64,000 nucleotides of DNA. Source: an uncultured Prevotellaceae bacterium. Its GTDB lineage: Bacteria > Bacteroidota > Bacteroidia > Bacteroidales > UBA3663. Shown here piece by piece: positions 567 to 15,701 of the stretch. The position numbers and the translations under genes are program-made. Below the pieces are notes generated by a model. That model saw only the letters and a list, made by a program, of their open reading frames with translations, searched no databases and was not told the origin of the DNA. The DNA lies in assembly GCA_964567855.1 (NCBI GenBank), contig CAZMOE010000008.1, forward strand, positions 4,921-68,920, written 5' to 3'. How positions within the stretch are numbered: position 1 is the first letter of the stretch; the number at the start of each line of letters is the position of its first letter.

Positions 567-1763
567 ATGAAAAAAGCTATTATTTTATTTTGGCATGGAC
601 TGACCGGAATCTTCTCCAGCATTGCCAACTGGTTTACTGTAATTTTGGGAATGAGAGACGATTCCGTATACGGGAGGATCATCCGTCGTATCGTAGGCGG
701 CAGTTTCGCGCTTCTGGTGTTAATAATGACCACGACCATCGGATGGTGCTGGTTTCATGAAATATGTAATCAATGGAGTGTAAGACACGGTTCAAAGAAC
801 GATGAAAGATATTATTCCGTCCAATATCTATCGCCGAATACGCTCTTCTACGATCATAAATACAGCAAAGAGGGTTATGTGAAAGACCGCGACGGAAAGA
901 AAATCCTGGAAAACGTACGTTGGATCGCCAAGCCGTTAGGCCGGGATTCGCTGGTATGTTATAGCGATGGCAAACGTAGGGGATATTTCAATATGTACAC
1001 CGGGGAAAACGTTATCCAGCCGCAATATCACCACGCATGGGTATTCTCAGACGGCCTGGCCTCGGTGGATGACGGCGGCTGGATAAAGTTTATCGACCCA
1101 ACCGGAAATGTTGTCGTCGATACTCATCTGCCATATATCTCCGGCATGGACGGATATGTGTTCCACGAAGGTCTGTGTGTCGTCCGCGATATGCAGCAGG
1201 ATAAGGTCGGTCTGCTTGATAAAACCGGGAAATGGCTTTTGCAACCGGAATACCAGGATATCTATCGGTTTGATTCACTGCTGATAATCAGCAACGGTAC
1301 GGAAGAGGCCGTCATGACGACCGGAATGGAGACTATCATTCCATTTTCCAAAGCAAGTCACTGGATTGAGAACCATATCATCCAGACGACCATGCCGGAC
1401 CACACTTTGCGTCAATACGACCTGCGTGGTAACGTCATAGCGGATTTCTACATCAGCGAAGTAGAACGGATGACCTATCCGACCTCCGAATTGTGTTATA
1501 ATACGACAAAGTATTATGACAATAACGGCAATGTCACAAAAAGTGAAACGGACAACTACGACCCCTATTTTACCCGACGGACAGCCAACCGCCTGTGTTA
1601 TCAGGCAGAGGCCGGATGGTATGGACTGATGTCCAACGACGGACATGTTATCACTCCCCCCTCCTATACTTCAATCACGGCCATCGGTCCGGACCTGTAT
1701 TTATGCAAGTTGTCCGAAGATTACGGAATATTGTTAAACGGAAAAGGGCAACAGGTAAAATAA
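567..1763 (+). CDS. membrane-anchored WG-repeat (KWG-type) protein of unknown function
   Basis: ATG at 567, 14 nt after the upstream stop. Hydrophobic N-terminus (IILFWHGLTGIFSSIANWFTVILG, FALLVLIMTTTIGWCWF). Repeated G(L/W)..V...GK(W/I)G.ID..G..V..P.Y units, e.g. DGLASVDDGGWIKFIDPTGNVV, EGLCVVRDMQQDKVGLLDKTGKWLLQPEY, GWYGLMSNDGHVITPPSY. Confidence 0.75.
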   Translation: MKKAIILFWHGLTGIFSSIANWFTVILGMRDDSVYGRIIRRIVGGSFALLVLIMTTTIGWCWFHEICNQWSVRHGSKNDERYYSVQYLSPNTLFYDHKYSKEGYVKDRDGKKILENVRWIAKPLGRDSLVCYSDGKRRGYFNMYTGENVIQPQYHHAWVFSDGLASVDDGGWIKFIDPTGNVVVDTHLPYISGMDGYVFHEGLCVVRDMQQDKVGLLDKTGKWLLQPEYQDIYRFDSLLIISNGTEEAVMTTGMETIIPFSKASHWIENHIIQTTMPDHTLRQYDLRGNVIADFYISEVERMTYPTSELCYNTTKYYDNNGNVTKSETDNYDPYFTRRTANRLCYQAEAGWYGLMSNDGHVITPPSYTSITAIGPDLYLCKLSEDYGILLNGKGQQVK

Positions 1764-1938: not shown

Positions 1939-2916
1939 TCACCCGAAACTCATCATGAAAACAGCGCCGAAACCCAGACGGCTGCTTACGGTAAGATTGC
2001 CGCCATGCAACCGCATGATCTGCCGACTGAGACAAAGACCGATGCCCGATCCCTCGCTCTTGGTGGTGAAAAACGGGAGGAAGACAGATTCGAGATTTTC
2101 CCGTGAAATGCCTGGACCGTTATCGCTGACGGTAATATAACACTGACCGGCGGAAAGCGAGGCGATAATTTCGATATTCGCCTCCTGCATTCCGGCCGTC
2201 GCCTCCACGGCATTCCTGATCAGATTGGTCAGGACCTGCGTAATCAGATCGGGATCCACCCGTAGTTCGATATCTTTCCCCGGCAAAAAATGAATATGGG
2301 CCGACTCGGGTGTCAAAGCCAGCAGCTTCCGCTGTTTTTCAAACAACCGGCGGATACTGACCGTCTCCAGCTTCGGCTGCGGCAAATGCGTGAGCCGATG
2401 ATAAGCATCCAGAATTTTCTCGATACTTATACACTGTCCGTTGATAAGTTCCAGTCCCTCCTGCAACATCTCCGGCGAATAACTGCCGGACTGCTTTACC
2501 AGATTATCAGACAAAGAGACTATCGGAGTGATGGAATTGCGCAATTCGTGCGTCATCACCCGTAAGATACGGTCATAATAGAGCTGCTTCGTCTCGATCT
2601 GATAAAGGTTATCCCGATAAAATGCCACAATCTGGTTCATATCGGCATACAATCGTTTTAAAGCCGAATCGTGAGTTTCCGGAAAGCGTACCATGAAATC
2701 ATGATTCACCAAAGATTGCAGGAAATAATCCATCTGCCGGATCAGAAACGAAATCAGATAGAACAACCGCCACAACAGACACACGGCCGTGCAGATCAGC
2801 AGACAACGCACCAGCCAATTCCAGCCCTCGATAAAAGCCACGGCAATCCCACCTCCCGCCAGCAGCAGGGCGATGGCGACCGCTGCCACATACCAACGAT
2901 AATAACGGCTTATCAC
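1939..2916 (-). CDS. sensor histidine kinase, intramembrane-sensing type (two TM helices, no extracytoplasmic domain)
   Basis: H-box MTHELRNSITPI, N-box LIRNAVEAT, G1 DNGPGI, G2 GSGIGL. The N-terminus has two hydrophobic helices joined by only EGWNW. GTG start at 2916 overlaps the upstream stop (GTGA). Confidence 0.9.
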   Translation of the reverse strand: MISRYYRWYVAAVAIALLLAGGGIAVAFIEGWNWLVRCLLICTAVCLLWRLFYLISFLIRQMDYFLQSLVNHDFMVRFPETHDSALKRLYADMNQIVAFYRDNLYQIETKQLYYDRILRVMTHELRNSITPIVSLSDNLVKQSGSYSPEMLQEGLELINGQCISIEKILDAYHRLTHLPQPKLETVSIRRLFEKQRKLLALTPESAHIHFLPGKDIELRVDPDLITQVLTNLIRNAVEATAGMQEANIEIIASLSAGQCYITVSDNGPGISRENLESVFLPFFTTKSEGSGIGLCLSRQIMRLHGGNLTVSSRLGFGAVFMMSFG

Positions 2917-3509
2917 GACTGTTCGATTTTCCTGACCTTATTATATAACGTCTGGCGGCCGATTCCCAAGCGCTTGGCGGCCAGCGTATAATTACCTCCC
3001 ACTTCTTTGAGGACCTCCAGAATATGCTGATTTCCGACCTCCTCGACGGTCATCCTCCGGGTGGAGTCGAGTTTGTCCTTTAAATTCTGTGCCTGACGTA
3101 CGACGTCATCCAATTGCATTTTTTCACGTTGCCTGACAATGGCATCCACCAGTTTGGCAATGAGCGCCTCATTGTCCCAAGGCTTGGTAATAAAGTCTTC
3201 GGCTCCGTTTTTAATGGATTTGACCGCGAGATCCACATCTCCAAAGGCTGTAATGAGCACCACGGCCGGTGCATTCGGCTGTTCTTTGATACGCGCCAGC
3301 CAGAACAAACCGTCTTCACCATCCAGCCTGCGGGCGTCGAAATTCATATCCAGCAGCACAACATCCACATCGCCCGCCGCCAGCAATGCAGGTAATACCT
3401 TGGGATCCGGCATCGCCACTACGGAGCGGAACACTCCGTTCAGCACGAATTTCAATGAACGCAACACCGCCTCATTGTCATCAATAATAAGAACTTTGTA
3501 ATCGTACAT
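2913..3509 (-). CDS. response regulator, REC domain + Fis-type HTH (no AAA+/sigma-54 module)
   Basis: Start trimmed to ATG 3507-3509 (MYDYKVLIIDDNE...). Phospho-acceptor context VVLLDMNF. The C-terminus NYTLAAKRLGIGRQTLYNKVRK is a Fis/HTH_8-type motif. Only about 198 aa, so there is no room for an NtrC central domain. Confidence 0.85.
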   Translation of the reverse strand: MYDYKVLIIDDNEAVLRSLKFVLNGVFRSVVAMPDPKVLPALLAAGDVDVVLLDMNFDARRLDGEDGLFWLARIKEQPNAPAVVLITAFGDVDLAVKSIKNGAEDFITKPWDNEALIAKLVDAIVRQREKMQLDDVVRQAQNLKDKLDSTRRMTVEEVGNQHILEVLKEVGGNYTLAAKRLGIGRQTLYNKVRKIEQS

Positions 3510-3572
3510 CTGTTTTCGATTTCCATCCGGCAATCGACATCTTCCTGCATCGCCGGAACCTGTTTCCAGCGA

Positions 3573-3580
3573 CAAAAGTA
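3573..3580 (-). promoter_or_regulatory. Bacteroidetes sigma-A -7 motif (TActTTTG) for the two-component operon
   Basis: The plus strand reads caaaagta, which is TACTTTTG on the minus strand, 64 nt upstream of the regulator ATG. Confidence 0.45.
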
Positions 3581-3677
3581 CTGTATTTTCTTCAACATGT
3601 GTCTTATTTTGAGACAATCCGCACCTTAAAAAAACATTTTCACGACTTTTCATCTCATAAAAGCACTTCAAAGCATC

Positions 3678-3685
3678 TATTTTTG
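3678..3685 (+). promoter_or_regulatory. Bacteroidetes sigma-A -7 motif (TAttTTTG) for the efflux operon
   Basis: tatttttg lies 54 nt upstream of the tolC-like ATG at 3739. Confidence 0.45.
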
Positions 3686-3738
3686 CATCACCAACCATAA
3701 CAGAACGAACAACGTCTCAACCTGCACACATAATCACG

Positions 3739-5166
3739 ATGAAAGAGATCCTTTCCTTCAGAAATTACCGACCGCTTAGGGCATTAGCAGTCGTCGCCAT
3801 ATTGATTTCAGGGCCACACATACCCTCTTCGGCCGCCACGCCGGCGCAGCCGGCACCAACCATTCTGCAGGAAACGCCCCAGGCATCCCGGGGCACGGCC
3901 ATGACCCTGCACGATTGCCTTCTCTACGCCCGCGACCATGCACGGGCCAACCGAATGGAACAATTATCGCTCGACATGAGCCGCATCGACCAGCAAAACC
4001 GCGCCTTCGCCTTCCTGCCCTATGTCAGCTTCGGTTCCGGAGCCTCCCTCGGTTTCGGCCGGGGCATCGACCCCGAAACCAACAGTTATGCCACCAAGCA
4101 GACGCTGAACAACAGCTACAGTCTTTCCATGTCGCTGCCGCTTTTCGACGGGTTAGTCAAGGTCAACACCTACCGCGCCTATAAAATGATGACCCTCCAG
4201 CAACGCAAACAGACCGAAATCACCGCCGATGCCACTTCGCTGAAAGTGATCCGCGCCTACTACAATATGGTCTACTACGAACAGCTTGTCAACCAAGTCA
4301 AATGCCAGCTGCAAAGCCACCGTGAGAACCTCCGCAAGACAGAACGGCAGGAGGCCCTGGGGATAATCGCCGGAGCCGACGTCGACGAAATGAAAGCGAC
4401 CGTCGCCAATTCGGAATACCAGCTTGTCAATCAGGAAAACCTTCTTGCCACGGCCGAACTGGAGCTTAAGGCCGAAATGAACTACCCCATAGACAGTCCG
4501 CTTACCATCCTCTCGCAAATACGCCTCGACGCCGATCCTCTGCACAGCGGGCCATTGCCCCTGCAAGATATCGAAAACTATGTACAGCACCTTCCCAAAG
4601 CACAGCAAGCCCTGTTGGCTCTCCGCCAAAGTCACTATCAGTTGAAAACGGCCCGCGGCAGCTACTCGCCCTCCCTCTCGCTCTCGGCCGGCATCTCGAC
4701 CTCCTATCACAAGACGCTTAACTTCAACTACGAAGCCGCTCCTTTCAATCAGCAATGGCATGACAACATGGGACAAAACATCAGCATCAGCCTCTCCATT
4801 CCCATTTTCGACCGGTTCGGCACCTTGAACAGCCACCGCCGCGCCAAACTCAGTTACAAACGCCAGCAGATAGCATACGAGGAGACCCTCTTCAATCTCG
4901 AGAAAGAGATGCAACAGGCCCAGATGGAACTGGAGGGAGCCCGCCGCGAGTATCTCGCAGCCGAATCCCGCCTCACGGCCGTAACCACAGCCCACCGCGC
5001 CAATCAGCGCAAGTTCGAGCTGGGCACTCTCTCCGCCCTGGAGCTTTATAGCAGTTCCTCCAATCTCGCTTCGGCACAAGCCACCGTCACCGGCAAGCAA
5101 ATCCAGTACCTCATCAAGCGCATCGAAATGGATTATTACCTGGGGCGTCCGTTTATCAACAACTGA
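3739..5166 (+). CDS. TolC-family outer-membrane efflux channel
   Basis: 475 aa with a signal-like N-terminus. Two long coiled-coil/beta repeat halves with typical OEP motifs (LHDCLLYA..., LQQRKQTEITADATSLKVIRAYYN, LELYSSSSNLASAQ). First gene of the efflux operon. Confidence 0.85.
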   Translation: MKEILSFRNYRPLRALAVVAILISGPHIPSSAATPAQPAPTILQETPQASRGTAMTLHDCLLYARDHARANRMEQLSLDMSRIDQQNRAFAFLPYVSFGSGASLGFGRGIDPETNSYATKQTLNNSYSLSMSLPLFDGLVKVNTYRAYKMMTLQQRKQTEITADATSLKVIRAYYNMVYYEQLVNQVKCQLQSHRENLRKTERQEALGIIAGADVDEMKATVANSEYQLVNQENLLATAELELKAEMNYPIDSPLTILSQIRLDADPLHSGPLPLQDIENYVQHLPKAQQALLALRQSHYQLKTARGSYSPSLSLSAGISTSYHKTLNFNYEAAPFNQQWHDNMGQNISISLSIPIFDRFGTLNSHRRAKLSYKRQQIAYEETLFNLEKEMQQAQMELEGARREYLAAESRLTAVTTAHRANQRKFELGTLSALELYSSSSNLASAQATVTGKQIQYLIKRIEMDYYLGRPFINN

Positions 5167-5201
5167 ATCGATCATCATACATAAAATAATCCGATTACCT
5201 C

Positions 5202-6452
5202 ATGGACAGAATCATAGAACACAAAGGAATCATCCGCAAAAAACATATTCCCTACATCATCGGCGGCTCCTTGCTCACGGGGCTCATCATCTGGGCATTG
5301 GCCGGCGACCGTTCCGCCCGGTTCCGTACAGAAAGAAAAAACATCACCGTCAGTGAAGTTACCCAGGGTGCATTCAACGACTATATCCGCCTCAACGGAA
5401 CGGTCGTGGCAGGAACCATCGTGCAGGTCGCCGCCCTCGAAAGCGGGATTGTCGAAACCAAGCACATCACCGAGGGAAACATGGTACGGAAAGGAGACAT
5501 CATCCTCACCTTACGCAATCCCCACCTCACGCAACAGATTCTCGACAGCGAGGCACAGCTTGCCGAAAAGCAGAATATGCTACGGGATACGGAGATATCC
5601 ATGGAAAAAAACAAGCTTTCCATGCAACAGGATCTCCTCACCACCGCCACCGAATACAATCGCTACCGCCGTGCCTATGAGCAGCAGAAAGCGCTTTACG
5701 AAGAACGGCTCACCTCCCGGGAATCCTATCTCCAGGCACAGGAGAACTACCATCTTGCCGAAAGCCGGCTTCAACTGCTTCACGACCGCATCTACCAGGA
5801 TTCTCTTTACCGCAGCGTACAGGTAGAGAGGCTCCGCGAAAGCCTTGCCAACATGGAACACAATCTGCAGCTCGTCCGCCAACGGGCTGACAACCTGAAA
5901 GTGCGCGCCTCGTACGACGGCCAGCTGGGAAGCCTCACTCCCGAACTCGGCCAGAACATCCCCTCGGGAGCAAATATCGGTAAAATCAACATCCTCGACA
6001 ACTACAAGATACAGGTTAGCATCGACGAACATTATATCGACCGCATCACGCTCGGACTGAACGGGAAATTTGAACAGCAAAGCACCAGCTACAACGTTTA
6101 TGTGAGCAAAGTCTATCCGGAAGTCCAGGGAGGTCAGTTCCGCACAGACCTCATCTTCGGCGACGAACGCCCGGAGAATATCCGAGTCGGCCAAACCTAT
6201 TATATCAACCTCGAACTGGGAGAATCTTCCGAAAGCGTTCTCATCCCGCGCGGCAGTTTCTATCAATCTACTGGCGGACGCTGGATTTTCGTCGTCAATG
6301 AGGAAGGCACAGAGGCCACCCGCCGCAATATCCGCATCGGAAAGCAGAATCCACAATACTACGAAATTACGGAAGGTCTCCAACCGGGAGAAAAAGTCAT
6401 CACCTCCGGTTATGACAGCTTCGGCGAGGCCGAAAAAATCATCATCCTGTAA
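5202..6452 (+). CDS. efflux periplasmic adaptor (membrane fusion protein, HlyD/MacA family)
   Basis: N-terminal TM anchor (IIGGSLLTGLIIWALAG), lipoyl-like GD.I..L motif (VRKGDIILTL), a long coiled coil, and C-terminal beta domains. Positioned between tolC and the ABC ATPase. Confidence 0.85.
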   Translation: MDRIIEHKGIIRKKHIPYIIGGSLLTGLIIWALAGDRSARFRTERKNITVSEVTQGAFNDYIRLNGTVVAGTIVQVAALESGIVETKHITEGNMVRKGDIILTLRNPHLTQQILDSEAQLAEKQNMLRDTEISMEKNKLSMQQDLLTTATEYNRYRRAYEQQKALYEERLTSRESYLQAQENYHLAESRLQLLHDRIYQDSLYRSVQVERLRESLANMEHNLQLVRQRADNLKVRASYDGQLGSLTPELGQNIPSGANIGKINILDNYKIQVSIDEHYIDRITLGLNGKFEQQSTSYNVYVSKVYPEVQGGQFRTDLIFGDERPENIRVGQTYYINLELGESSESVLIPRGSFYQSTGGRWIFVVNEEGTEATRRNIRIGKQNPQYYEITEGLQPGEKVITSGYDSFGEAEKIIIL

Positions 6453-6518
6453 GCGGGAAACAATTACAAAGAACTATAAAACAATATCCACGAATTCAAA
6501 TCAAAAACATTGTATATT

Positions 6519-7202
6519 ATGAAAATCCAAATCAAAAACTTAGAGAAAGTATTCCGTACGGAACTTGTTGAAACCGTAGCCCTGAACAGCATCGACATGG
6601 AGGTTAAAGAGGGAGAATTCGTCGCTATCATGGGTCCCTCAGGCTGCGGCAAATCTACATTGCTCAACATCCTCGGACTTTTAGACAATCCTACTTCCGG
6701 CTCTTATGAGCTTGACGGTCACGAAGTCGCTACCCTCAAAGAAAAAGAGCGCACCAACTACCGCAAAGGTAAAATCGGCTTCATTTTCCAGTCATTCAAC
6801 CTGATCGAAGAACTCAACGTCGAAGAAAACATAGCCCTGCCGCTCAACTATCTGCATATCTCTTCATCCGAAAAGAAACGCCGCGTACAGGAAATCATGC
6901 AGCGTGTCAACATCAGCCATCGCGCCAAACACTTCCCCAACCAGCTCTCCGGCGGCCAGCAACAGCGTGTGGCCATCGCCCGCGCTGTTATCGCCAATCC
7001 CGGGCTGATCCTCGCCGACGAACCTACAGGCAACCTCGACTCAAAAAACGGTCAAGAGGTTATGGAACTGCTCAGCGAACTCAATCGCGAGGGCACAACC
7101 ATCGTTATGGTGACCCACTCGCAAAAAGATTCCACCTATGCCCACCGCATCATCAATCTCTTCGACGGGCAGATCGTGCAATCGCTCGACAATAAAATGT
7201 AA
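6519..7202 (+). CDS. ABC transporter ATP-binding protein (MacB/LolD-type)
   Basis: Walker [10 protein letters not shown], signature [14 protein letters not shown], Walker [14 protein letters not shown]-loop VTHS. The track start at 6510 is TTG, so I prefer ATG 6519 ([12 protein letters not shown]). Confidence 0.92.
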
Positions 7203-7231
7203 AAACATTCCTTACCGACACCCCCGCCCTT

Positions 7232-9586
7232 ATGAAAAGTTTCTTCATTTTCCTATCGCATAACAAACTCTACACGTTCATCAACTTCTTCGGATTAAGC
7301 ATCTCCTTAGCGATCATCTTTATCATTGCCGGCTATACCGGCAACCAACTGCAGACCGATAGCTTCCAGAAAAATGCCGACCGTATCTATATCCTCAGTT
7401 CCGGTAACGGGAAAGCCCACGCGGCTTACGGTGTCTCTCCATTGTTGAGCGGCCGCTTTCCGGAAATAGAGCATGTCGTGGCCCTGCATTGCGAATCCTG
7501 CAGAACTAAGATCAATGACATACAAAGTTACGAGACCGTACTGATGGCCGATTCCGCCTTCTTCAATATGTTCACCATTGACATTAGCGACGGCGACGTG
7601 CAACAGTTCAAACATTCCCGGCAACAATGCGTCATCAGCAAGCAACTTGCCCGTCGGATGTTCGGCGATCGCAACCCCATCGGGCAGAAGATCTCATTCG
7701 ATGACAACCGCGATTTCACAATTTGCGCCGTCATGAAAGATATCAGGAACAGCATCCTGCCCGATGCCGGTATCGTGGTCCCCGTTACCTCCTACCTATC
7801 TTTCTATTATGGTAACGACAAACGATATATGGGAAACGCCGGATTCGCCTACATCTTCCTCATGCCCCACAAGGGTGCAGATCTCGAGGCACGCACCGAC
7901 GATATCCTGCAATGCTTCCGCGAAAACTATTGGGCTTATGACAACCGCGATAGGAAAGTCCAGTTCATCTCCTTGCGCGACAGTTTCTTCCAGCTCGACC
8001 TGGCCGGAGATTTTCCAAGCAACAACAAATTCCATTCCGGCAACAAAAACTTCGTGTTGACGCTCATCTCCGTAGGATTGATACTCCTGATTTTCGCCAT
8101 TCTCAACTACATCAATCTAAGTATTGCCCAAACCACTTTCCGCGCTAAGGAAATGGCCACCCGCCGTCTCCTCGGCACTTCCCGGCAAGGTATCATCGCC
8201 CGCATGATCGGCGAATCGACCATCTTCTGCTCGTTCGCCGTCGGCGTAGGCCTCCTGCTGGCCTATGCGCTCCTACCCTACGCCAATCAATTGCTGGAAC
8301 ACCAGTTCGGACTATTCGATAATATCGAGTGGCAAGGCATCGCCGCCTACCTGCTCGGCTTCATCATGCTCTGTGTGCTAACCGGTATTTGTCCGGCCCT
8401 GCTCCTCGCCCGATATCAGCCCATCGAGGTGGTGAAAGGTATTTTCAAAAGCCACAGTAAAAACCTCTACGGTAAAATCATGATCGGGATCCAATACGCC
8501 ATTGCTATTGCCATGCTCGTATCGTCGGGGATCGTCTATCTCCAGACCCGCCACCTGAAAGAGGCCCCGCTCGGCTACAATACCGAAAACATCCTCTACA
8601 TTCCACGCTACGCCAGCCATTTCCTGAATGCCGTTACCTTCCGCGACCGGATGCTGGCCCTCCCCTACGTCGAGGCTGTCGGGCTGGGCAATGGCACCCC
8701 GCTACATGGCTCCAATAATAACACCATGAAAATGGGCGACCGATGGATCTCTACCCAGGAAATCCGCGGCGATTCCGCCTATTTCGAAATCCTCGGGCTA
8801 CGCCTCAAGCAGGAAAATCATCAGGCGAACCGAAATGCCGTCTATTTCACGGAACAAGTTTTCCGCGAAATGGAGATCGATGAGGATGCCCTCGTCACCC
8901 CGATGCTCGGCAATGCGGAAAAAGGCTGGAAAATAAACATTGCGGGCGTGTACCACGACTTCCAACTCGGCACCATCTTAGACAAAAAACGTTGCGCCAG
9001 CGTCGACAACCGCGGAACGTATGACCCCAATGGCCCATGGAATCCGTGGGACTTCATTGTCAAAATCAAAGGAGATCCAGATGCTGCCAAAAAGGCTATC
9101 GCCGAAGCCTACCGCATCGAAACCGAAGGAGGCGAAGCCGGACCGGGTGAAATAATTTATTTCCACGAGACATTGGATGCAGCCTTCAAGCAGGAAAGCA
9201 ATCTGTTGCAAATCGTCATCATTTTCACGGTGCTCGCACTCCTCATCTCCACCTTAGGACTGCTTGCCATGTCGACCTATTACATCCGCCAGCGTCGTCA
9301 GGACATCGCCGTCAAGCGGGTATTCGGAGCCTCGCAAAGCAACATCGTCCGACAACTGACAGGAACGTTTCTACAACTTGTAGGCATTTCCTTCCTCGTC
9401 GCCGTTCCGATAATCTATATGATCATGCACCGATGGCTGGAAGACTACAACTACCGCATCGAACAACCTGCCTGGCTCTATGTAGCAACAGCCTGCTTCG
9501 CCGGCATCGTTGCTTTCTGCACCATCGTAGGATTCGCCATGCAAACAGCTCGGGAAAACCCGGTCTCCGTGTTAAAGAAAGAATAA
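7232..9586 (+). CDS. ABC transporter permease, FtsX/MacB family (paralog 1 of 3)
   Basis: 784 aa. N-terminal TM, then a periplasmic domain, then TM bundles. FtsX-type motif RAKEMATRRLLGTSR and a second FtsX half (IAVKRVFGASQSNIV). Confidence 0.9.
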   Translation: MKSFFIFLSHNKLYTFINFFGLSISLAIIFIIAGYTGNQLQTDSFQKNADRIYILSSGNGKAHAAYGVSPLLSGRFPEIEHVVALHCESCRTKINDIQSYETVLMADSAFFNMFTIDISDGDVQQFKHSRQQCVISKQLARRMFGDRNPIGQKISFDDNRDFTICAVMKDIRNSILPDAGIVVPVTSYLSFYYGNDKRYMGNAGFAYIFLMPHKGADLEARTDDILQCFRENYWAYDNRDRKVQFISLRDSFFQLDLAGDFPSNNKFHSGNKNFVLTLISVGLILLIFAILNYINLSIAQTTFRAKEMATRRLLGTSRQGIIARMIGESTIFCSFAVGVGLLLAYALLPYANQLLEHQFGLFDNIEWQGIAAYLLGFIMLCVLTGICPALLLARYQPIEVVKGIFKSHSKNLYGKIMIGIQYAIAIAMLVSSGIVYLQTRHLKEAPLGYNTENILYIPRYASHFLNAVTFRDRMLALPYVEAVGLGNGTPLHGSNNNTMKMGDRWISTQEIRGDSAYFEILGLRLKQENHQANRNAVYFTEQVFREMEIDEDALVTPMLGNAEKGWKINIAGVYHDFQLGTILDKKRCASVDNRGTYDPNGPWNPWDFIVKIKGDPDAAKKAIAEAYRIETEGGEAGPGEIIYFHETLDAAFKQESNLLQIVIIFTVLALLISTLGLLAMSTYYIRQRRQDIAVKRVFGASQSNIVRQLTGTFLQLVGISFLVAVPIIYMIMHRWLEDYNYRIEQPAWLYVATACFAGIVAFCTIVGFAMQTARENPVSVLKKE
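9260..9586 (+). repeat. conserved 3' block of permease paralog 1 (pairs with 11744-12070)
   Basis: This 327-nt block aligns without gaps to 11744-12070. Exact shared runs seen by eye include cagcgtcgtcaggacatcgcc (21 nt), caacctgcctggctcta, atctatatgatcatgc and gctttctgcaccatcg. Confidence 0.8.
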
Positions 9587-9721
9587 AGTATTCCTTTTTC
9601 CTGCTGTCCGAATGCGACACCGGGAAAGAGACTTTCCGCTGACACCCGCCGACCTGGAACCGCTCTTCCGTGGCTCATCGGATTTCCACACAACTCCATT
9701 CATCCATAAACATTCATCGAT

Positions 9722-12070
9722 ATGCGTTCCTATTTCGTTTTCCTTTCACGCAACAAACTCTATACCGCGATCAATTTTCTGGGACTGACCGTATCGCTTG
9801 CATTCATCATTCTCATTGCCAGCTATACCAGCAAACAGCTGCAAACCGATTCTTTCCAGGAAAATGCCGACCGCATCTATTTCGTGGGTAGCCAGCGGGG
9901 CTTCAACACTTGCTACTGGCTGCAAAGGTATCTTGTGAATCGTTACCCCGAAATCGAGGCGGCCACGGCCTTGGAGGCCGACATCATGGAAGTTTCGGCC
10001 GGTGAGAACCACCTTTCAACCCAAGAATGCTGTCTGATGGCCGACAGTTCATTTTTCGACATGTTTACCATTCCCGTTTTAGACGGCGACCTCTCCTCAT
10101 TCAAACTTTCCTGCCAATATTGCGTCATCAGCCAGCGATATGCCCGCCGAATTTTCGGCGACCGAAACCCTTTGGGCGAAAAGATCGACATCATCTATGA
10201 GAATCAACCCTTTTCCTTCACCGTCGGAGCGGTTATGCAAAATCTGGACAACAGCATTCTTCCCGAAGCAGCCGTCATCGTACCGGCGGAACCTCTCATG
10301 CTGACGGATACATCCAACGGCCCCAGCCTGAGTAACGTCAATGCCTGCTATACCGTCATCATGACCCACAAGGGAGCCGACATCTCGGCCCGAAGCGAAG
10401 AAATGCTTGAATATTTCAAGAAAATCCTCTGGAACTATTCAAGGGGAAGCAGTACCGCCGTGCGTTTCACGCCCCTCCAGGGCGCTTACTTCAACGACCA
10501 TTTCTCCAAACATCTCCGCGATCATTTCAACGGCGGCAACCGGGATTTCATCTCCATTCTCATCACCGTCGGCATCATCCTGCTGATCTTCGCCTTGCTC
10601 AACTATGTCAACCTGACGATAGCACAATCGGCCATGCGTGCCAAAGAAATGGCCATGCGCCGGCTTTTAGGAACCACTAAGAACGGCATTGTGTACCGGC
10701 TCATCGCCGAATCGCTGATCCTATGCCTATCGGCAAGCGCAGTGGCGTTATTACTGGCCTATGCCCTGCTTCCTGCCGCTACCGAACTGCTGGATTACCG
10801 ATTCACCCTCTTCAACGATTTCAACATCATCCCGGTAAGCATCTCCATAGGAGGCATTCTGCTCATCGGGGTGACGGCGGGCCTCATCCCGGCACTCTTA
10901 ATCTCCCGATATCATCCGATCGAGGTGGTCAAGGGATACTTCCGCTCCAAATCCAAAAGCATTTTCGGCAAATCGATGATCGGCATACAATACGCCATCA
11001 CCGTCTCCATGCTTATCGCTACCGGTATCGTCGGCCTGCAGGTAAAACACCTCATCGACGCACCTTTGGGTTATGACACCGACGACTGCATCGTCATCGA
11101 GAGGCAAGGACAACAACGCCTTGGCATATTGAAGGATAAACTATTGGCTCATCCTCAAATCGTGGCCGTAGGATTCGGCGAAGGACATCCGTTTACCGGT
11201 CTCTCGAATACTCCGATCCACTGCAACGGCAAGCATGTTCCCATGATGTGGGTCAAAGGCGATAAAGAGTACTTCAAGATACTCGGCCTTCGCGTCAAGC
11301 AGCACAACAGCTCCGATACACTGGGATACCATCGCATCTACTTCAACGAATATGCCCTCAAAGAGACCGGATATCCGGAGGATGCCACCGAAATCATCGA
11401 TGAAAAAGGCTACAAGGAAGCGTTTTCCGGCATCTACTACGACTTCCGCTTTCACGACATTCTGACACGCCCAAGAGGGGCACGTATCATCAATTACGGC
11501 GAAAGATCGCCCGACAAATGGCGTCCGAAAACCATTGTCATCAAAACCCAGGGCGACCACACTACCGCCCGACAATATGTCTCGCAAGTTTTTGAAGAGT
11601 TATATCCTGATCTCAGCCAATTAGACAGCCACTCGGCGCCCTATGTCGAAGAACTTCTGGTGCGACATTACAGCGCGGAACGCCGCCTGCTGAAAATCAT
11701 CGGTATCTTCACCGCCCTGGCCATCCTCATCTCCTCCCTCGGCCTGCTCGCCATGTCGACCTACTACATCCGGCAGCGTCGTCAGGACATCGCCATCAAG
11801 CGGGTCTTCGGGGCCTCGCAAGGAAACATTGTCGGCAGACTGGCAGGCACGTTTCTCCTTATCGTCGGCATCGCTTTTGTTGTGGCAACGCCCATCATCT
11901 ATATGATCATGCGTCACTGGCTCGAGGGATACAGCTACCGTATCGTGCAACCTGCCTGGCTCTACGCCGCGACAGCCGCCTTCGTCACGATCGTCGCTTT
12001 CTGCACCATCGCAGGCCTCGCCTTCAAAGCCGCAAGGGAAAACCCCGTCGCGGTCCTGAAGAAAGACTGA
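9722..12070 (+). CDS. ABC transporter permease, FtsX/MacB family (paralog 2 of 3)
   Basis: 782 aa, colinear with paralog 1. N-terminus MRSYFVFLSRNKLYTAINFLGL compares with MKSFFIFLSHNKLYTFINFFGL. Motifs RAKEMAMRRLLGTTK and IAIKRVFGASQGNIV. Confidence 0.9.
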   Translation: MRSYFVFLSRNKLYTAINFLGLTVSLAFIILIASYTSKQLQTDSFQENADRIYFVGSQRGFNTCYWLQRYLVNRYPEIEAATALEADIMEVSAGENHLSTQECCLMADSSFFDMFTIPVLDGDLSSFKLSCQYCVISQRYARRIFGDRNPLGEKIDIIYENQPFSFTVGAVMQNLDNSILPEAAVIVPAEPLMLTDTSNGPSLSNVNACYTVIMTHKGADISARSEEMLEYFKKILWNYSRGSSTAVRFTPLQGAYFNDHFSKHLRDHFNGGNRDFISILITVGIILLIFALLNYVNLTIAQSAMRAKEMAMRRLLGTTKNGIVYRLIAESLILCLSASAVALLLAYALLPAATELLDYRFTLFNDFNIIPVSISIGGILLIGVTAGLIPALLISRYHPIEVVKGYFRSKSKSIFGKSMIGIQYAITVSMLIATGIVGLQVKHLIDAPLGYDTDDCIVIERQGQQRLGILKDKLLAHPQIVAVGFGEGHPFTGLSNTPIHCNGKHVPMMWVKGDKEYFKILGLRVKQHNSSDTLGYHRIYFNEYALKETGYPEDATEIIDEKGYKEAFSGIYYDFRFHDILTRPRGARIINYGERSPDKWRPKTIVIKTQGDHTTARQYVSQVFEELYPDLSQLDSHSAPYVEELLVRHYSAERRLLKIIGIFTALAILISSLGLLAMSTYYIRQRRQDIAIKRVFGASQGNIVGRLAGTFLLIVGIAFVVATPIIYMIMRHWLEGYSYRIVQPAWLYAATAAFVTIVAFCTIAGLAFKAARENPVAVLKKD
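11744..12070 (+). repeat. conserved 3' block of permease paralog 2 (pairs with 9260-9586)
   Basis: See 9260-9586. Same length, same frame, no indels. The periplasmic-domain parts of the two genes are far more divergent. Confidence 0.8.
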
Positions 12071-12200
12071 CGGAGTAACCGGCGGCGCAAGACGGGAATC
12101 GGCTCCATGTAAATGATTGCCGCTTCCCGCCCTGCCGCAGGGAAGCCATATAGAGTGAGAAGGCCTTCCTTTTTTACAGAAACAACTAACTACAATCCAC

Positions 12201-14531
12201 ATGCGATCTTATTTCACATTTCTTTCACGTAATAAGGCATACACAGGCATCGAAATCCTCGGACTTTCAGTATCCATGGCCTTCATTATCCTGATTTTTT
12301 GCCATATCAAGCATGAAATCAGCATACCGACGATGATACCGGGATATGAAAATACCTATCTTATCCATCTCAGTGAAACCCCACACACACCATACGACAC
12401 AGGTGACCAACTCAAGGAAACCATTCCCGAAATCGCCGACATTTGCCGAATACATGATCCTTACGATTGTACGGTAACGGCAGGCGAGTTTGAACTTTAT
12501 AATATCAATGTATGTGGTATGGAAAGCAATTGGGCGGATTTCTTCCCAACCGACGTTATCGATGGCTCCATCACCGATTTTACTGATGTCCGAAATGCAA
12601 TCATCACCAGGCAATTGGCCGACAAGTTATTCAGCGATAAAGAATCGGCTGTCGGGCAAACCATTACCATAGAAAAACAAAATTATACCGTTTCGGGAGT
12701 CATCGATCCGGCCAACTTGCAGATATTCGAGTCTTTCAACATCATCGTTAATATCCGTTCCGCTCTGTTCAAGAAACTGACCGAAGGAAAAGAGAGTTCC
12801 GACAACATGGCATTCCTTTCCTTCATAAAAACCGCTCCCGGCGTAGAAGAAGAACTCCTCGCCCAAAAGTGGGATGAATATGCCCGCACCCGCTGGAAAA
12901 GTCATTTTGATATCGGATGGGAAACCGAAACAGGAGTTACCCGCTTGGATAAGCTCTACTTTCATAGCACATCCTTTTTTTTCATTCGTCACGGTAGCAA
13001 AAGAATGCTCTGTATCCTTTGTGCCATCGCCATCGGTCTGTTTTTCTCTGCGCTCGTCAATTACATCAATCTCGGTGTCGCTCTTGTCGGAAAACGGGCC
13101 AAGGAAATGGCCATCCGCCGGCTTTTAGGCTCTTCCAAGCACGAAATTCGCTTCCGATATTTCAAGGAATCCCTATTCCTGACCTGTGTTTGCTTTGCAT
13201 TAGGGATCGGACTGGCCTACCTCTTCGCTCCGGACTTCTACCAACTCATCGACGCTCGTACCGATCTTTTGGACCATATCGACGGATGGCACGTCGCCGC
13301 TTACCTCTTCACCATTTTGCTCACAGCCGGGCTTGCCTCTCTGCTCCCCGGTATGTTAGTCTCCAAACTGCAACCGCTTGATGTGGTCCGCGGCACATTC
13401 AAACTCAAAAGCAAAATGATCTTCTCTAAAATCTTCATCGTAATGCAAAACGTGTTGGCCATCGTGCTTACCGCCGTGACGCTGACCATGCACCATCAAA
13501 TAGAATATGCCTCACACCGCAACACGGGACTCAATAATACGGATGCCCTCGTTCTCGTCACAGCATTTTCGATGAAAGACGAATTGGCCGCCCTTCCTTG
13601 CGTAAAACGGATAGGTTACGGTTATGCCCTTCCCGGCCTCTCGAAAATGAAAATGAGTATACATACCGAAGGTAAGACCTACCAATTTGTAATATACAGC
13701 ATGGACACGACCGCTTTCCAAATCATCGGTTTCGACATACAGGAAAGATACGACAGAGCGCTTAACTATAGTATTTGGTACCCCCGTAGCACAGCGAATG
13801 CCCTTAACGTCACTCCGGAGCACTCCGCCGTCCCTAATGCGATAGCCCGCTGGAATCTGGACAATGATGCCCCCACCCCGCAACCCGGCGGCGTGACAGG
13901 AGATATACTGACCTCCGCAATATGGGAGGAAAACACATTCATGCCGACAATCTTCACAGTAGCAGATCGAAAAGACAAAAGCACACAGAGACTGCTCATC
14001 GAAACAATCGGTCCCCACGACGAAGCAAAAGCTGCTATCGGGGAGCTTTATGCCCGAATGGCAAAGACCAAGAACGTTCCGGACATCCCCGAAGAATGCG
14101 AATATCTCTCGGAAATTCCTAAAAGAGGGTTGCAACCCTTGCGCCGTACCGCGCGACTCGTCTCCATCTTCAACGGCGTGGCCCTGCTGATCGCCCTGCT
14201 GGGTCTCGTTGCCATGAGCCATTATTACACAGAACAATGTACTATGGAAATTGCAATGAGAAAGATTTACGGCGCCACCCGGAAGCAGATATTGCAAAAA
14301 CTTGCCCGCGGATATTTCTCGATGATGCTTCTCTCGACCGTTATCGCGATCCCGGTAGCTACAGTCATCTGCCGCCGCTATCTGGAAAACTATTCCTACC
14401 GCATACCGGGCCACACCGGAGAATTGGTTGCCGCCACCGCCATCACAATGATCGTCTCAGCCCTCGCCGTAGTCTGGCAAATATCCAAAGCTGCCACCGC
14501 TAATCCTATCGACACCATCAAAAAGGAATAA
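12201..14531 (+). CDS. ABC transporter permease, FtsX/MacB family (paralog 3 of 3, divergent)
   Basis: 776 aa. It has the same N-terminal signature (MRSYFTFLSRNKAYTGIEILGLS) and FtsX motifs (RAKEMAIRRLLGSSK; IAMRKIYGATRKQIL), but its periplasmic domain is largely unrelated. Confidence 0.88.
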   Translation: MRSYFTFLSRNKAYTGIEILGLSVSMAFIILIFCHIKHEISIPTMIPGYENTYLIHLSETPHTPYDTGDQLKETIPEIADICRIHDPYDCTVTAGEFELYNINVCGMESNWADFFPTDVIDGSITDFTDVRNAIITRQLADKLFSDKESAVGQTITIEKQNYTVSGVIDPANLQIFESFNIIVNIRSALFKKLTEGKESSDNMAFLSFIKTAPGVEEELLAQKWDEYARTRWKSHFDIGWETETGVTRLDKLYFHSTSFFFIRHGSKRMLCILCAIAIGLFFSALVNYINLGVALVGKRAKEMAIRRLLGSSKHEIRFRYFKESLFLTCVCFALGIGLAYLFAPDFYQLIDARTDLLDHIDGWHVAAYLFTILLTAGLASLLPGMLVSKLQPLDVVRGTFKLKSKMIFSKIFIVMQNVLAIVLTAVTLTMHHQIEYASHRNTGLNNTDALVLVTAFSMKDELAALPCVKRIGYGYALPGLSKMKMSIHTEGKTYQFVIYSMDTTAFQIIGFDIQERYDRALNYSIWYPRSTANALNVTPEHSAVPNAIARWNLDNDAPTPQPGGVTGDILTSAIWEENTFMPTIFTVADRKDKSTQRLLIETIGPHDEAKAAIGELYARMAKTKNVPDIPEECEYLSEIPKRGLQPLRRTARLVSIFNGVALLIALLGLVAMSHYYTEQCTMEIAMRKIYGATRKQILQKLARGYFSMMLLSTVIAIPVATVICRRYLENYSYRIPGHTGELVAATAITMIVSALAVVWQISKAATANPIDTIKKE

Positions 14532-14601: not shown

Positions 14602-15675
14602 ATGAAAGCAAGAAATTTACTGTTAAGCATGGCCGTTGTCTGCGGCTTTACATTCAGGGCGATGGCCTGCACCGGTCTATCCCTGACCGCCTCCGACGGC
14701 AGTTATGTACAGGCCCGGACCATCGAATGGGCCGCCGAAGGATTGAAAAGCGAATACGTCATCATTCCCCGCGGCCAACAACTGGTTTCCTACACCCTCT
14801 CAGGGGCCAACGGGCTGGCGTTCAAAGCGAAGTATGGCGTCGTCGGGCTGGCTGTCGTCCAGAAAGAATTTATCGCCGAAGGGATCAACGAGGCAGGCCT
14901 GTCGGCCGGGCTTTTCTTCTTCCCCCGTTATGGAAGCTATGAAAGCTACGATCCGGCCGACAACCGTCGTACACTCGGCGATCTGCAGGTCGTGGCATGG
15001 ATGCTCTCCCAATTCAGTACTATTGACGAGATTAAGGCGGCCATCCCCTCCGTCCGTATCATCGGTCTGGAAGAAACTTCGGTGGTGCATTGGCGCATCG
15101 GAGATACTTCCGGCCGACAGGTTGTGCTTGAAATTGTCGACGGAGTGCCTCACTTTTACGACAATGAGGTCGGCGTCTTGACCAATGCCCCCGGCTATCC
15201 GTGGCATATCACCAACCTGAACAACTATGTCAATCTTTTTCCCGGCAGCGCCCCCAACCAGCAACTCGGCGGGGTCACTTTGCGCCCCATCGGAGCCAAC
15301 ACCGGCTTTCTCGGCATTCCCGGCGATGCCACACCACCCTCCCGTTTCGTCCGCATCGCTTTCTATCGCAATACCGCCCCTATCCAGCCCGATGGATTCC
15401 ACAGCGTGCTGCAATGTTTCCATTTACTCAATAACTTCGATATTCCCATCGGCATAGAAAATCCCCGGGGCCAGGCACCCGACATCCCCAGCGCGACACA
15501 ATGGACCTCGGCCATTGATTTGACTCACCGCCGGGTCTACTACAAAACCGCCTATAACAACTCCATCCGCTGCATCGATCTTTCTGAAATCGACTTCGAC
15601 AAGGTATCCTATCAGTCGCATCCGCTGGACGCTGTACAAGAGCAGCCCATCGTAAAAATCGAGATCGGAAACTGA
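14602..15675 (+). CDS. choloylglycine hydrolase family protein (Ntn hydrolase; bile-salt hydrolase / penicillin V acylase-like)
   Basis: Signal peptide ends in A-M-A directly before Cys (FRAMA|CTGLSL), which would expose the N-terminal nucleophile Cys. An Arg lies 16 residues later (ARTIEW, with Glu where BSH/PVA usually has Asp). 357 aa, typical for the family. Confidence 0.8.
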   Translation: MKARNLLLSMAVVCGFTFRAMACTGLSLTASDGSYVQARTIEWAAEGLKSEYVIIPRGQQLVSYTLSGANGLAFKAKYGVVGLAVVQKEFIAEGINEAGLSAGLFFFPRYGSYESYDPADNRRTLGDLQVVAWMLSQFSTIDEIKAAIPSVRIIGLEETSVVHWRIGDTSGRQVVLEIVDGVPHFYDNEVGVLTNAPGYPWHITNLNNYVNLFPGSAPNQQLGGVTLRPIGANTGFLGIPGDATPPSRFVRIAFYRNTAPIQPDGFHSVLQCFHLLNNFDIPIGIENPRGQAPDIPSATQWTSAIDLTHRRVYYKTAYNNSIRCIDLSEIDFDKVSYQSHPLDAVQEQPIVKIEIGN

Positions 15676-15678
15676 AAC

Positions 15679-15701
15679 AATGCCCGACCAGGTCGGGCAT
15701 T
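15679..15701 (+). terminator. hairpin terminator after the BSH-like gene
   Basis: aatgcccgac cag gtcgggcatt: perfect 10-bp stem, 3-nt loop, 4 nt after the stop codon. There is no clear U-tract. Confidence 0.5.

Follow-up and report, generated by a model that had tools for sequence, protein, structure and literature searches.

Among the closest described counterparts of the locus considered here are the Bce modules of Firmicutes, in which a two-component system is coupled to an ATP-binding cassette (ABC) transporter. The regulator of the archetypal module, BceR, belongs to the OmpR (winged-helix) family. Its partner kinase BceS requires the transporter for activation, and the linker of approximately 60 residues that BceS possesses takes up a HAMP-like fold which is missed by sequence methods and is typical of Bce-like kinases (bioRxiv 10.1101/2020.02.28.969956). 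The permease BceB has a topology of 10 transmembrane (TM) helices and one large extracellular domain (PMC8277102). We have analyzed a stretch of 64,000 nucleotides from an uncultured Prevotellaceae bacterium (contig CAZMOE010000008.1), hereafter the window, in which the genes for a histidine kinase and its response regulator lie divergent from an operon encoding a TolC-family outer membrane factor, a membrane fusion protein (MFP, the periplasmic adaptor), an ABC-type ATPase and three permeases. This gene set had been proposed in an earlier reading of the bare sequence (the original prediction), and the open reading frame (ORF) map and domain scans confirm it. From sequence comparison, the locus appears to belong to a large and hitherto undescribed family of Bacteroidales modules, each a self-contained resistance/efflux unit, and there is good support for a dedicated two-component module that controls the neighboring tripartite ABC pump by way of a conserved putative operator.

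A scan of one genome per species returned at least 586 relatives of the kinase. The best 80 of these were taken on as loci, and all are from Bacteroidales, namely Bacteroidaceae, Prevotella, Phocaeicola, Parabacteroides/Tannerellaceae and Muribaculaceae. Together with L001, the contig that carries the window's own module, the scanned loci (78 of the 80 with an identified regulator) make up the 81 loci analyzed here, which were mapped with the window proteins and with hidden Markov models (HMMs) built from them. The kinases form a family of proteins of 305-334 amino acids (aa), and the regulator lies directly upstream of the kinase in nearly all loci. Thirty loci were fully flanked, with at least 8 kb on either side of the kinase, and in 28 of them a MacB-type ATPase, a duplicated FtsX permease or both are encoded within 10 kb; the linkage of orthologous kinases to such transporters, without which the original prediction would lose its footing, is hence strongly conserved. 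There are at least five gene orders among the loci: the pair may be divergent from a tolC-MFP-ATPase-permease operon, as in the window, or from an ATPase-permease operon; the transporter may lie downstream on the opposite strand; the two-component genes may end the transporter operon; and mixed arrangements also occur. Across these gene orders no conserved small membrane-protein gene recurs with the pair, and the genes of the ABC module alone do so. Six module HMMs gave no match in the other 48 kb or so of the window, outside positions 1939-14531.

Three relatives, L084, L085 and L086, whose kinases are 77-96% identical to that of the window, retain the module in full. What adjoins it on the side of the kinase varies, being a WG-repeat protein in the window (567-1763, forward strand) and in L086, glutamate synthase in L084, and a glycoside hydrolase of family GH2 with a hybrid two-component gene in L085. 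Such differing flanks among close relatives mark the module as a conserved unit that appears to have been relocated or recombined whole.

The components of the module also diverge together. Mantel correlation of pairwise distance matrices between the kinase and the other components gave r = 0.91 for the regulator, 0.82 for the MFP, 0.81 for the ATPase and 0.57 for the nearest permease, each with permutation p <= 0.0005; permease values as a whole were 0.57-0.61. Eight genomes contribute two loci each and, for most of these pairs, kinase, regulator and ATPase are much nearer to the module of another genome than to the second module of their own. The kinases of L007 and L034, from one genome, are 56% identical, against 99% for L007-L009 and 96% for L034-L040 across genomes, and the ATPases are congruent. 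This clustering of paralogues across genomes means that co-divergence is not merely a matter of species phylogeny; the comparison indicates that genomes hold several paralogous modules, each of which has evolved as a whole.

Indications of a regulatory link come from the region between the two divergent operons. With the regulator starting at the ATG at 3509, which is the most likely start, the intergenic gap spans 229 bp (3510-3738). The receiver (REC) domain begins at residue 6 of the resulting 198-aa protein, and the 96%-identical relative L086 was also called at 198 aa. A longer regulator ORF from 3698 was considered and rejected, because its extra 63 codons span the conserved palindrome and a -7 motif and gather insertions and deletions in the relatives. 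The original prediction had described back-to-back TAnnTTTG motifs in this divergent region, and these are indeed present, one for each operon. Between them lies a perfect palindrome, TGTCTTATTTTGAGACA. Palindrome and both promoter motifs are conserved in an alignment with the three relatives introduced above, and the operator consensus for the family is TGTCyAAwwwTTrGACA.

Three further observations bear on the function of this site. Of 76 regions upstream of a regulator gene, 18 contain TGTC-N9-GACA, for which the expectation is 0.017 per 300 bp, and palindromes with an A/T-rich spacer number 37 in the 81 loci, against 1.6 expected in block-shuffled sequence. All but five of these 37 (32) precede a gene for TolC, MFP, ATPase or permease by no more than 250 bp, including operons situated away from two-component genes. 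The distance from the palindrome center to the first T of the next TAnnTTTG is also rigid, being 68-70 bp towards the ABC gene in 24 of 26 cases; on the side of the regulator gene, six cases, the window among them with 28 bp, show a spacing of 28-30 bp. If transcription starts, as we infer, some 10-12 nt beyond the first T of this motif, the center of the palindrome would fall at approximately -80 relative to the pump operon and approximately -40 relative to the regulator-kinase operon. A 17-bp palindrome is of a size that suits a dimeric protein with a Fis-type helix-turn-helix (HTH), and its co-occurrence with the regulator is the basis on which we assign it to this regulator as its putative operator. 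In this scheme, which has good support, the phosphorylated regulator would bind the palindrome at 3600-3616 as a dimer and would then switch on the pump, an exported enzyme of the choloylglycine-hydrolase family and its own regulator-kinase operon.

Two operator palindromes each were seen in L026, L032, L037 and L080, either with each palindrome approximately 100 bp upstream of a separate transporter sub-operon or in tandem 20 bp apart (L080); such loci imply multi-promoter regulons. In the window as a whole, TAnnTTTG was counted 51 times; shuffled sequence leads one to expect 31, and none of 100 shuffles reached 51, an excess that fits the use of Bacteroides-type promoters across the window.

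The kinase presents an input region of extreme economy. Its topology was derived from a hydropathy and charge profile over 81 family sequences and from an AlphaFold2 model built on a 31-sequence alignment (mean predicted local distance difference test score 83.9). In the profile, an uncharged TM1 (residues approximately 10-29) is followed by a polar loop of four residues (30-33) and an uncharged TM2 (approximately 34-48/52), with lysine and arginine enriched on the cytoplasmic flanks of both helices; the model has helices at 6-30 and 34-71 with a three-residue break at 31-33. The two N-terminal hydrophobic helices of the original prediction are therefore real; its link of about five residues (EGWNW) shortens to the four residues EGWN, and its second helix, placed at residues 35-59, overshoots a membrane part that ends near residues 48-52. 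The four-residue length holds throughout the family, and no member of the 81-sequence profile has an extracytoplasmic domain, so that the sizeable loop which would have spoken against the original prediction was sought and found to be absent. Nor did Pfam scans of 31 family members detect a periplasmic, PAS or HAMP domain (HAMP and PAS searched at E <= 10), which bears out the earlier view of a kinase without a periplasmic or PAS domain. The N-terminus thus has the architecture by which an intramembrane-sensing histidine kinase is defined, namely two TM helices, a very short spacer and no other input domain (Mascher 2006). It is well supported that this kinase cannot bind a periplasmic ligand.

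Where the original prediction erred was in having the kinase run directly into the H-box with no room for a HAMP domain. Approximately 70 residues separate TM2 from the phospho-accepting His123, and in the model a juxtamembrane helix reaches residue 71, residues 72-83 form a connector of 12 residues, and a long helix (84-141) runs on into helix 1 of the dimerization and histidine phosphotransfer (DHp) domain. The linker has a/d heptad periodicity, conserved residues D73, P79, D83, M93 and N94, and Pro/DxxL/MNxI motifs that are readable in the alignment. It is the best conserved part of the kinase outside the catalytic core; linker and DHp are the most conserved parts overall, the frequency of the majority residue being 0.32-0.35 in the TM helices, 0.54 in the linker and 0.54-0.67 across the non-TM parts. 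The linker-region profile found no HAMP chain among PDB sequences, only spurious helical matches; since this search and Pfam both miss it, we call the linker HAMP-like in its modeled topology and make no claim of HAMP homology. The correction leaves the analogy with Bce systems unweakened. BceS has the same layout, and the search for a cryptic input domain ended in nothing other than this transmitter-type linker. The remainder of the kinase is orthodox: HATPase_c is matched at E = 1.9e-23 and HisKA weakly, the catalytic motifs are kept in 31 of 31 aligned kinases, and the DHp and catalytic ATP-binding (CA) domains are closest to those of ZraS and AtoS.

The regulator, whose GTGA overlap with the kinase start was correctly noted in the original prediction (2913-2916) and is kept as a 4-bp overlap in L084-L086, has a different ancestry from that of BceR. 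Its best NCBIfam match is FixJ, mainly over REC, with NtrC-family matches over REC and a FlbD match (residues 150-196) over the C-terminal HTH. A 35-aa linker alone separates REC from HTH_8, and Pfam detects no AAA+ Sigma54_activat domain in the window regulator. In Parabacteroides/Tannerellaceae relatives (L039, L046, L047, L060 and L074) the regulator is 260-275 aa long and consists of REC, an AAA_lid_14 remnant and HTH_8; the Sigma54_activat core is also missing from these proteins. The series suggests stepwise loss of the sigma-54 AAA+ domain, from an AAA_lid_14 remnant in relatives to the bare linker in the window. By its domain composition, then, the regulator is an NtrC-type protein that lost its AAA+ core. 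Consistent with that loss, no sigma-54-like -24/-12 site with three or fewer mismatches is present at 3510-3738. Elsewhere in Bacteroidia, sigma-54 promoters are enriched upstream of FtsX permeases of COG0577 (PMC12316311). Given this survey, the ZraS/AtoS-like kinase core, the AAA_lid_14 remnants and the missing sigma-54 site, the module probably derives from a sigma-54-dependent, NtrBC-like system that controlled FtsX transporters, lost its AAA+ motor and now acts on Bacteroides-type promoters.

The pump itself has the composition that defines a MacAB-TolC-type tripartite (Type VII ABC) system, that is, a TolC duct, an adaptor, permeases with MacB_PCD and FtsX domains and a MacB/LolD-type ATPase. 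Each permease carries MacB_PCD with two FtsX stretches and has eight hydrophobic segments, arranged as TM1, a periplasmic domain of approximately 235 aa and TM2-4, followed by TM5, a second periplasmic domain of approximately 225 aa and TM6-8; judged by this repeat, each is a fused MacB pseudo-dimer. A single ATPase gene serves three paralogous permeases, the third of which scores 436 with the permease HMM against approximately 700 for the other two. In the 81%-identical relative L084, permease 3 has decayed to a 117-aa FtsX fragment (L084 327-680) with the remaining module intact. The best NCBIfam matches are DarC for the adaptor and DarD for the ATPase, and for the permeases ADOP first and DarB second. 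The permeases stay far below the curated cut-offs of both, with 159-190 bits against 622 for ADOP (TIGR03434) and 45-72 against 700 for DarB (NF038008); they share the architecture of these proteins and not their subfamily, and, with all NCBIfam scores far under the curated cut-offs, the pump is no equivalog of any named system. A bacteriocin or ribosomally synthesized and post-translationally modified peptide (RiPP) export or immunity locus was considered and rejected, as the DarBCD-like and lactococcin-972-like matches are far under cut-off, there are no biosynthetic genes nearby and the flanks of relatives differ.

What, then, does such a kinase sense? Since it lacks any part that could bind a ligand in the periplasm, the signal most likely comes from the pump. 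We tentatively put first the idea that the signal reaches the kinase inside the membrane from its own pump, through the TM helices of the permease and/or the adaptor, whose conformation would change with ATP-driven handling of substrate; we hold it as plausible, and somewhat short of an even chance. It takes this place because the characterized two-TM kinases of this design beside FtsX transporters are reported to need them, because the membrane proteins of the pump are the only ones to recur with the pair, and because the modules co-diverge. Expression would then rise and fall with the load on the pump, as a convergent counterpart of Bce-type flux sensing, and likely stimuli would be membrane-active gut compounds such as bile salts, antimicrobial peptides or detergent-like metabolites. 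In its fullest form, which we offer as speculation with a modest chance of being right, a Bce-like need-based circuit would have evolved independently in gut Bacteroidales: the kinase would dock on the duplicated MacB-type permease or adaptor and read its ATP-driven cycle, the AAA+-less NtrC-derived regulator would act at approximately -80, and paralogous modules would each report the load of their own pump.

Several points weigh against transporter-coupled sensing. The argument for contact between kinase and transporter is one of analogy, and the mechanism is not transferable by homology, since regulator family and permease topology both differ from Bce. Two of the fully flanked loci, L038 and L046, carry the pair amid housekeeping genes with no ABC gene within 10 kb. 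Between modules the permeases are approximately 20-25% identical, against approximately 70% for the ATPase and 60% for the MFP, and no conserved docking surface is evident. The poorly conserved TM helices fit a partner-specific interface and would equally fit a mere membrane anchor. When the kinase TM region was compared with the permease in a partial Mantel test, with the cytoplasmic part controlled, r was 0.21, and the same test against the cytoplasmic regulator gave r = 0.27; we rejected the former as evidence of contact, since the regulator control matches it and the signal is therefore non-specific. Lastly, two-component genes divergent from efflux operons are common without transporter sensing.

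The reading that survives next best is that the kinase itself senses a stimulus in the membrane phase, be it a partitioned hydrophobic or amphipathic compound such as a bile acid or the packing of the bilayer, and that the pump is an output only. The well-supported regulatory link to the pump needs no transporter sensing, the kinase is intact and membrane-embedded, and the few loci that carry the pair without a nearby transporter are readily accommodated; moreover, DesK and SaeS, kinases with minimal loops, are reported to sense in or at the membrane without a transporter. The low conservation of the TM helices speaks against a ligand pocket common to the family, although paralogues might each possess a pocket of their own, and in the reviews by Mascher the characterized two-TM kinases beside FtsX-type ABC transporters reportedly depend on the transporter or on another accessory membrane protein. 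We consider direct sensing possible, if rather unlikely.

Control might instead come from another source. This could be a LiaF/VraT-like accessory membrane protein whose gene lies elsewhere or the single TM helix of the adaptor; alternatively, the cue could be cytoplasmic, perceived by the HAMP-like linker and DHp or passed on by the ATPase. It is the linker and DHp that are most conserved in the kinase, which tracks ATPase and MFP (r of approximately 0.8) more closely than the permeases (approximately 0.6), and the MFP has an N-terminal TM helix that could take part. Set against this, the genes recurring with the pair are those of the ABC module, with no small membrane-protein gene among them, kinase TM region and MFP show a partial correlation of zero, and the lower permease correlation may reflect an arbitrary pick among paralogous permeases. 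A controller of this kind seems to us improbable. That the resemblance is superficial, with the kinase a largely constitutive phosphodonor/phosphatase while other regulators set the pump, or with adjacency a product of shared mobility, would suit a module that moves or recombines as a unit between differing kinase-side flanks, and is very hard to reconcile with rigid operator-promoter spacing over dozens of loci and several gene orders, co-diverging components and catalytic motifs kept in every aligned kinase, all of which bespeak a working, dedicated signaling circuit.

The choloylglycine-hydrolase-family (CBAH) gene that follows permease 3 is probably the last gene of the pump operon. There is no terminator-like site in the 70 bp between the two genes, and the CBAH gene is kept in the 81%-identical relative L084. 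Its signal peptide ends just ahead of the Cys23 nucleophile. An exported enzyme of this family, probably transcribed with the pump, gives a hint that the relevant chemistry may be that of conjugated bile acids or related amides. Coordinates of all features of the module are collected in the table.

Table. Features of the two-component and efflux module, in window coordinates (a point in the strand column marks a feature without strand).
Feature	Position	Strand	Basis
Histidine kinase, 325 aa, GTG start: 2 TM, HAMP-like linker, DHp (His123), CA	1939..2916	-	ORF map, domain scans, AlphaFold2
Kinase DHp (H-box MTHELRNS, His123) and CA domain, ZraS/AtoS-like	1942..2571	-	Domain/family comparison
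Kinase juxtamembrane HAMP-like linker, residues ~53-115: helix, connector 72-83, helix with MNxI motif	2572..2760	-	Alignment, AlphaFold2, profile
Kinase TM2, residues ~34-52	2761..2817	-	Profile, AlphaFold2
Kinase periplasmic turn EGWN, residues 30-33; sole extracytoplasmic part	2818..2829	-	Profile, AlphaFold2
Kinase TM1, residues ~10-29	2830..2889	-	Family hydropathy/charge profile; AlphaFold2 helix 6-30
GTGA overlap, regulator stop/kinase GTG start	2913..2916	-	Sequence; 4-bp overlap also in L084-L086
Response regulator, 198 aa, REC + Fis-type HTH_8, no AAA+	2913..3509	-	Domain scans, gene call in L086
TAnnTTTG (-7-type) promoter motif, regulator-kinase operon; 28 bp from palindrome center	3573..3580	-	
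Perfect palindrome, 17 bp; putative regulator operator	3600..3616	.	Single match to family pattern in 64-kb window
TAnnTTTG (-7-type) promoter motif, pump operon; 70 bp from palindrome center	3678..3685	+	
TolC-family outer membrane factor, 475 aa	3739..5166	+	PF02321
MFP/periplasmic adaptor, HlyD/resistance-nodulation-division (RND)-type, 416 aa, one N-terminal TM helix	5202..6452	+	PF13437/PF16576, TIGR01730
MacB/LolD/DarD-type ABC ATPase, 230 aa from TTG (gene callers: 227 aa)	6510..7202	+	PF00005
Permease 1, 784 aa, duplicated MacB_PCD + FtsX, 8 TM	7232..9586	+	PF12704 + PF02687
Permease 2, 782 aa, architecture as permease 1	9722..12070	+	
Permease 3, 776 aa, architecture as permease 1, most divergent	12201..14531	+	
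Exported CBAH-family enzyme (bile salt hydrolase/penicillin V amidase-like)	14602..15675	+	
Strong GC-rich hairpin, 10-bp stem, directly 3' of CBAH stop; probable operon end	15679..15701	.	

Beyond the module, a polysaccharide-utilization-like cluster occupies 17303-42818 on the reverse strand, with a sulfatase-domain protein, a DUF5107+TPR protein, GH43, GH35, GH78 and GH106 rhamnosidases and GH2; such a cluster fits the genome of a gut member of the Bacteroidales. Adjoining these glycoside hydrolase genes, 42933-45710 (reverse strand) encodes a 925-aa protein with Reg_prop, Y_Y_Y and an AraC-type HTH and with no HisKA, HATPase or REC match, which looks like a hybrid two-component sensor lacking the phosphorelay core.

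Bacteroidales dominate the mammalian gut, where they face bile salts, host and microbial peptides and drugs, and their stress sensing and induction of efflux are poorly known. With at least 586 relatives, often more than one to a genome, the family offers a compact and predictable unit of kinase, regulator, operator and promoter. Such compactness makes it testable whether flux sensing, as documented for Bce systems of Firmicutes, operates on a tripartite pump of a Gram-negative bacterium. The fixed spacing of operator and promoter and the stepwise AAA+ loss would, furthermore, provide a clean example of a sigma-54 activator rewired to a housekeeping-type Bacteroides promoter, and the module is a candidate inducible part for Bacteroides synthetic biology.

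Placed among known systems, the module draws on several without coinciding with any. With the NtrB/NtrC types (ZraSR, AtoSC) it shares the nearest DHp/CA relatives of its kinase and the NtrC-like REC and HTH_8 of its regulator; unlike sigma-54 activators of the NtrC type, it has neither AAA+ core nor sigma-54 promoter. The final architecture of REC and HTH_8 is that of PrrA/ActR/RegA, an architecture held in common and not a family membership, as the ActR/PrrA family (NF033791) is matched at 41.9 bits against a cut-off of 250. Unlike either NtrC- or PrrA-type systems, it has a TGTC-N9-GACA operator fixed at a set distance from a Bacteroides TAnnTTTG promoter.

On the side of the pump, the TolC duct, HlyD/RND-type adaptor, MacB_PCD/FtsX permease and MacB/LolD-type ATPase recall MacAB-TolC, and the duplicated permease architecture recalls ADOP and DarB of the darobactin exporter DarBCD. 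The ATPase, which is fused in E. coli MacB, is a separate polypeptide in the window; further differences are that each permease is a fused pseudo-dimer and that three paralogous permeases depend on one ATPase. The macAB genes of E. coli are under the control of PhoPQ, a system with a periplasmic sensor. A dedicated two-component pair beside an envelope-spanning efflux operon that it regulates, with a shared intergenic control region, is also found in AdeRS-AdeABC, CusRS-CusCFBA and BaeSR-MdtABC of Proteobacteria. The AdeRS, CusRS and BaeSR systems have periplasmic sensor domains, OmpR-type regulators and RND pumps, whereas the window kinase lacks a periplasmic domain and its pump is ABC-type.

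There remains the comparison with the Bce modules (BceRS-BceAB, PsdRS-AB, BraRS/VraDE and GraRS-VraFG). Here, as there, a two-TM kinase with minimal loop, no input domain and a HAMP-like linker of approximately 60 aa adjoins an FtsX/MacB-superfamily ABC transporter with a separate MacB/LolD-type ATPase; the permease polypeptide holds two FtsX units; several co-diverging paralogous modules occur per genome; and adjacency and co-evolution of two-component system and transporter hold equally (28 of 30 loci; Mantel r 0.57-0.82). Indeed, when the kinase model was compared with the PDB by Foldseek, kinase cores ranked top, and among the 50 matches listed BceS (8g3a_D, from the BceAB-S complex) alone aligned near full length (340 columns, 18% identity). 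The differences are no less clear. In place of an OmpR-type protein, the window regulator combines REC with a Fis-type HTH from the NtrC line; the kinase core resembles ZraS and AtoS; each permease has 8 TM helices with two periplasmic domains, against 10 and one extracellular domain in BceB; and the pump is a tripartite, envelope-spanning assembly with MFP and TolC and up to three permeases per ATPase, in the phylum Bacteroidota. To judge from these families and topologies, the module is not homologous to Bce systems, so that the resemblance is one of convergent architecture and not of family membership. Full-text literature searches, with subscription-only papers outside their reach, returned no account from Bacteroidota of this module or of intramembrane-sensing kinases; the survey of sigma-54 promoters cited above (PMC12316311) was the one related item. 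What emerges as new, therefore, is a widespread Bacteroidales module family that appears to join a convergent, Bce-like kinase to an AAA+-less, NtrC-derived regulator and a fixed operator-promoter architecture.

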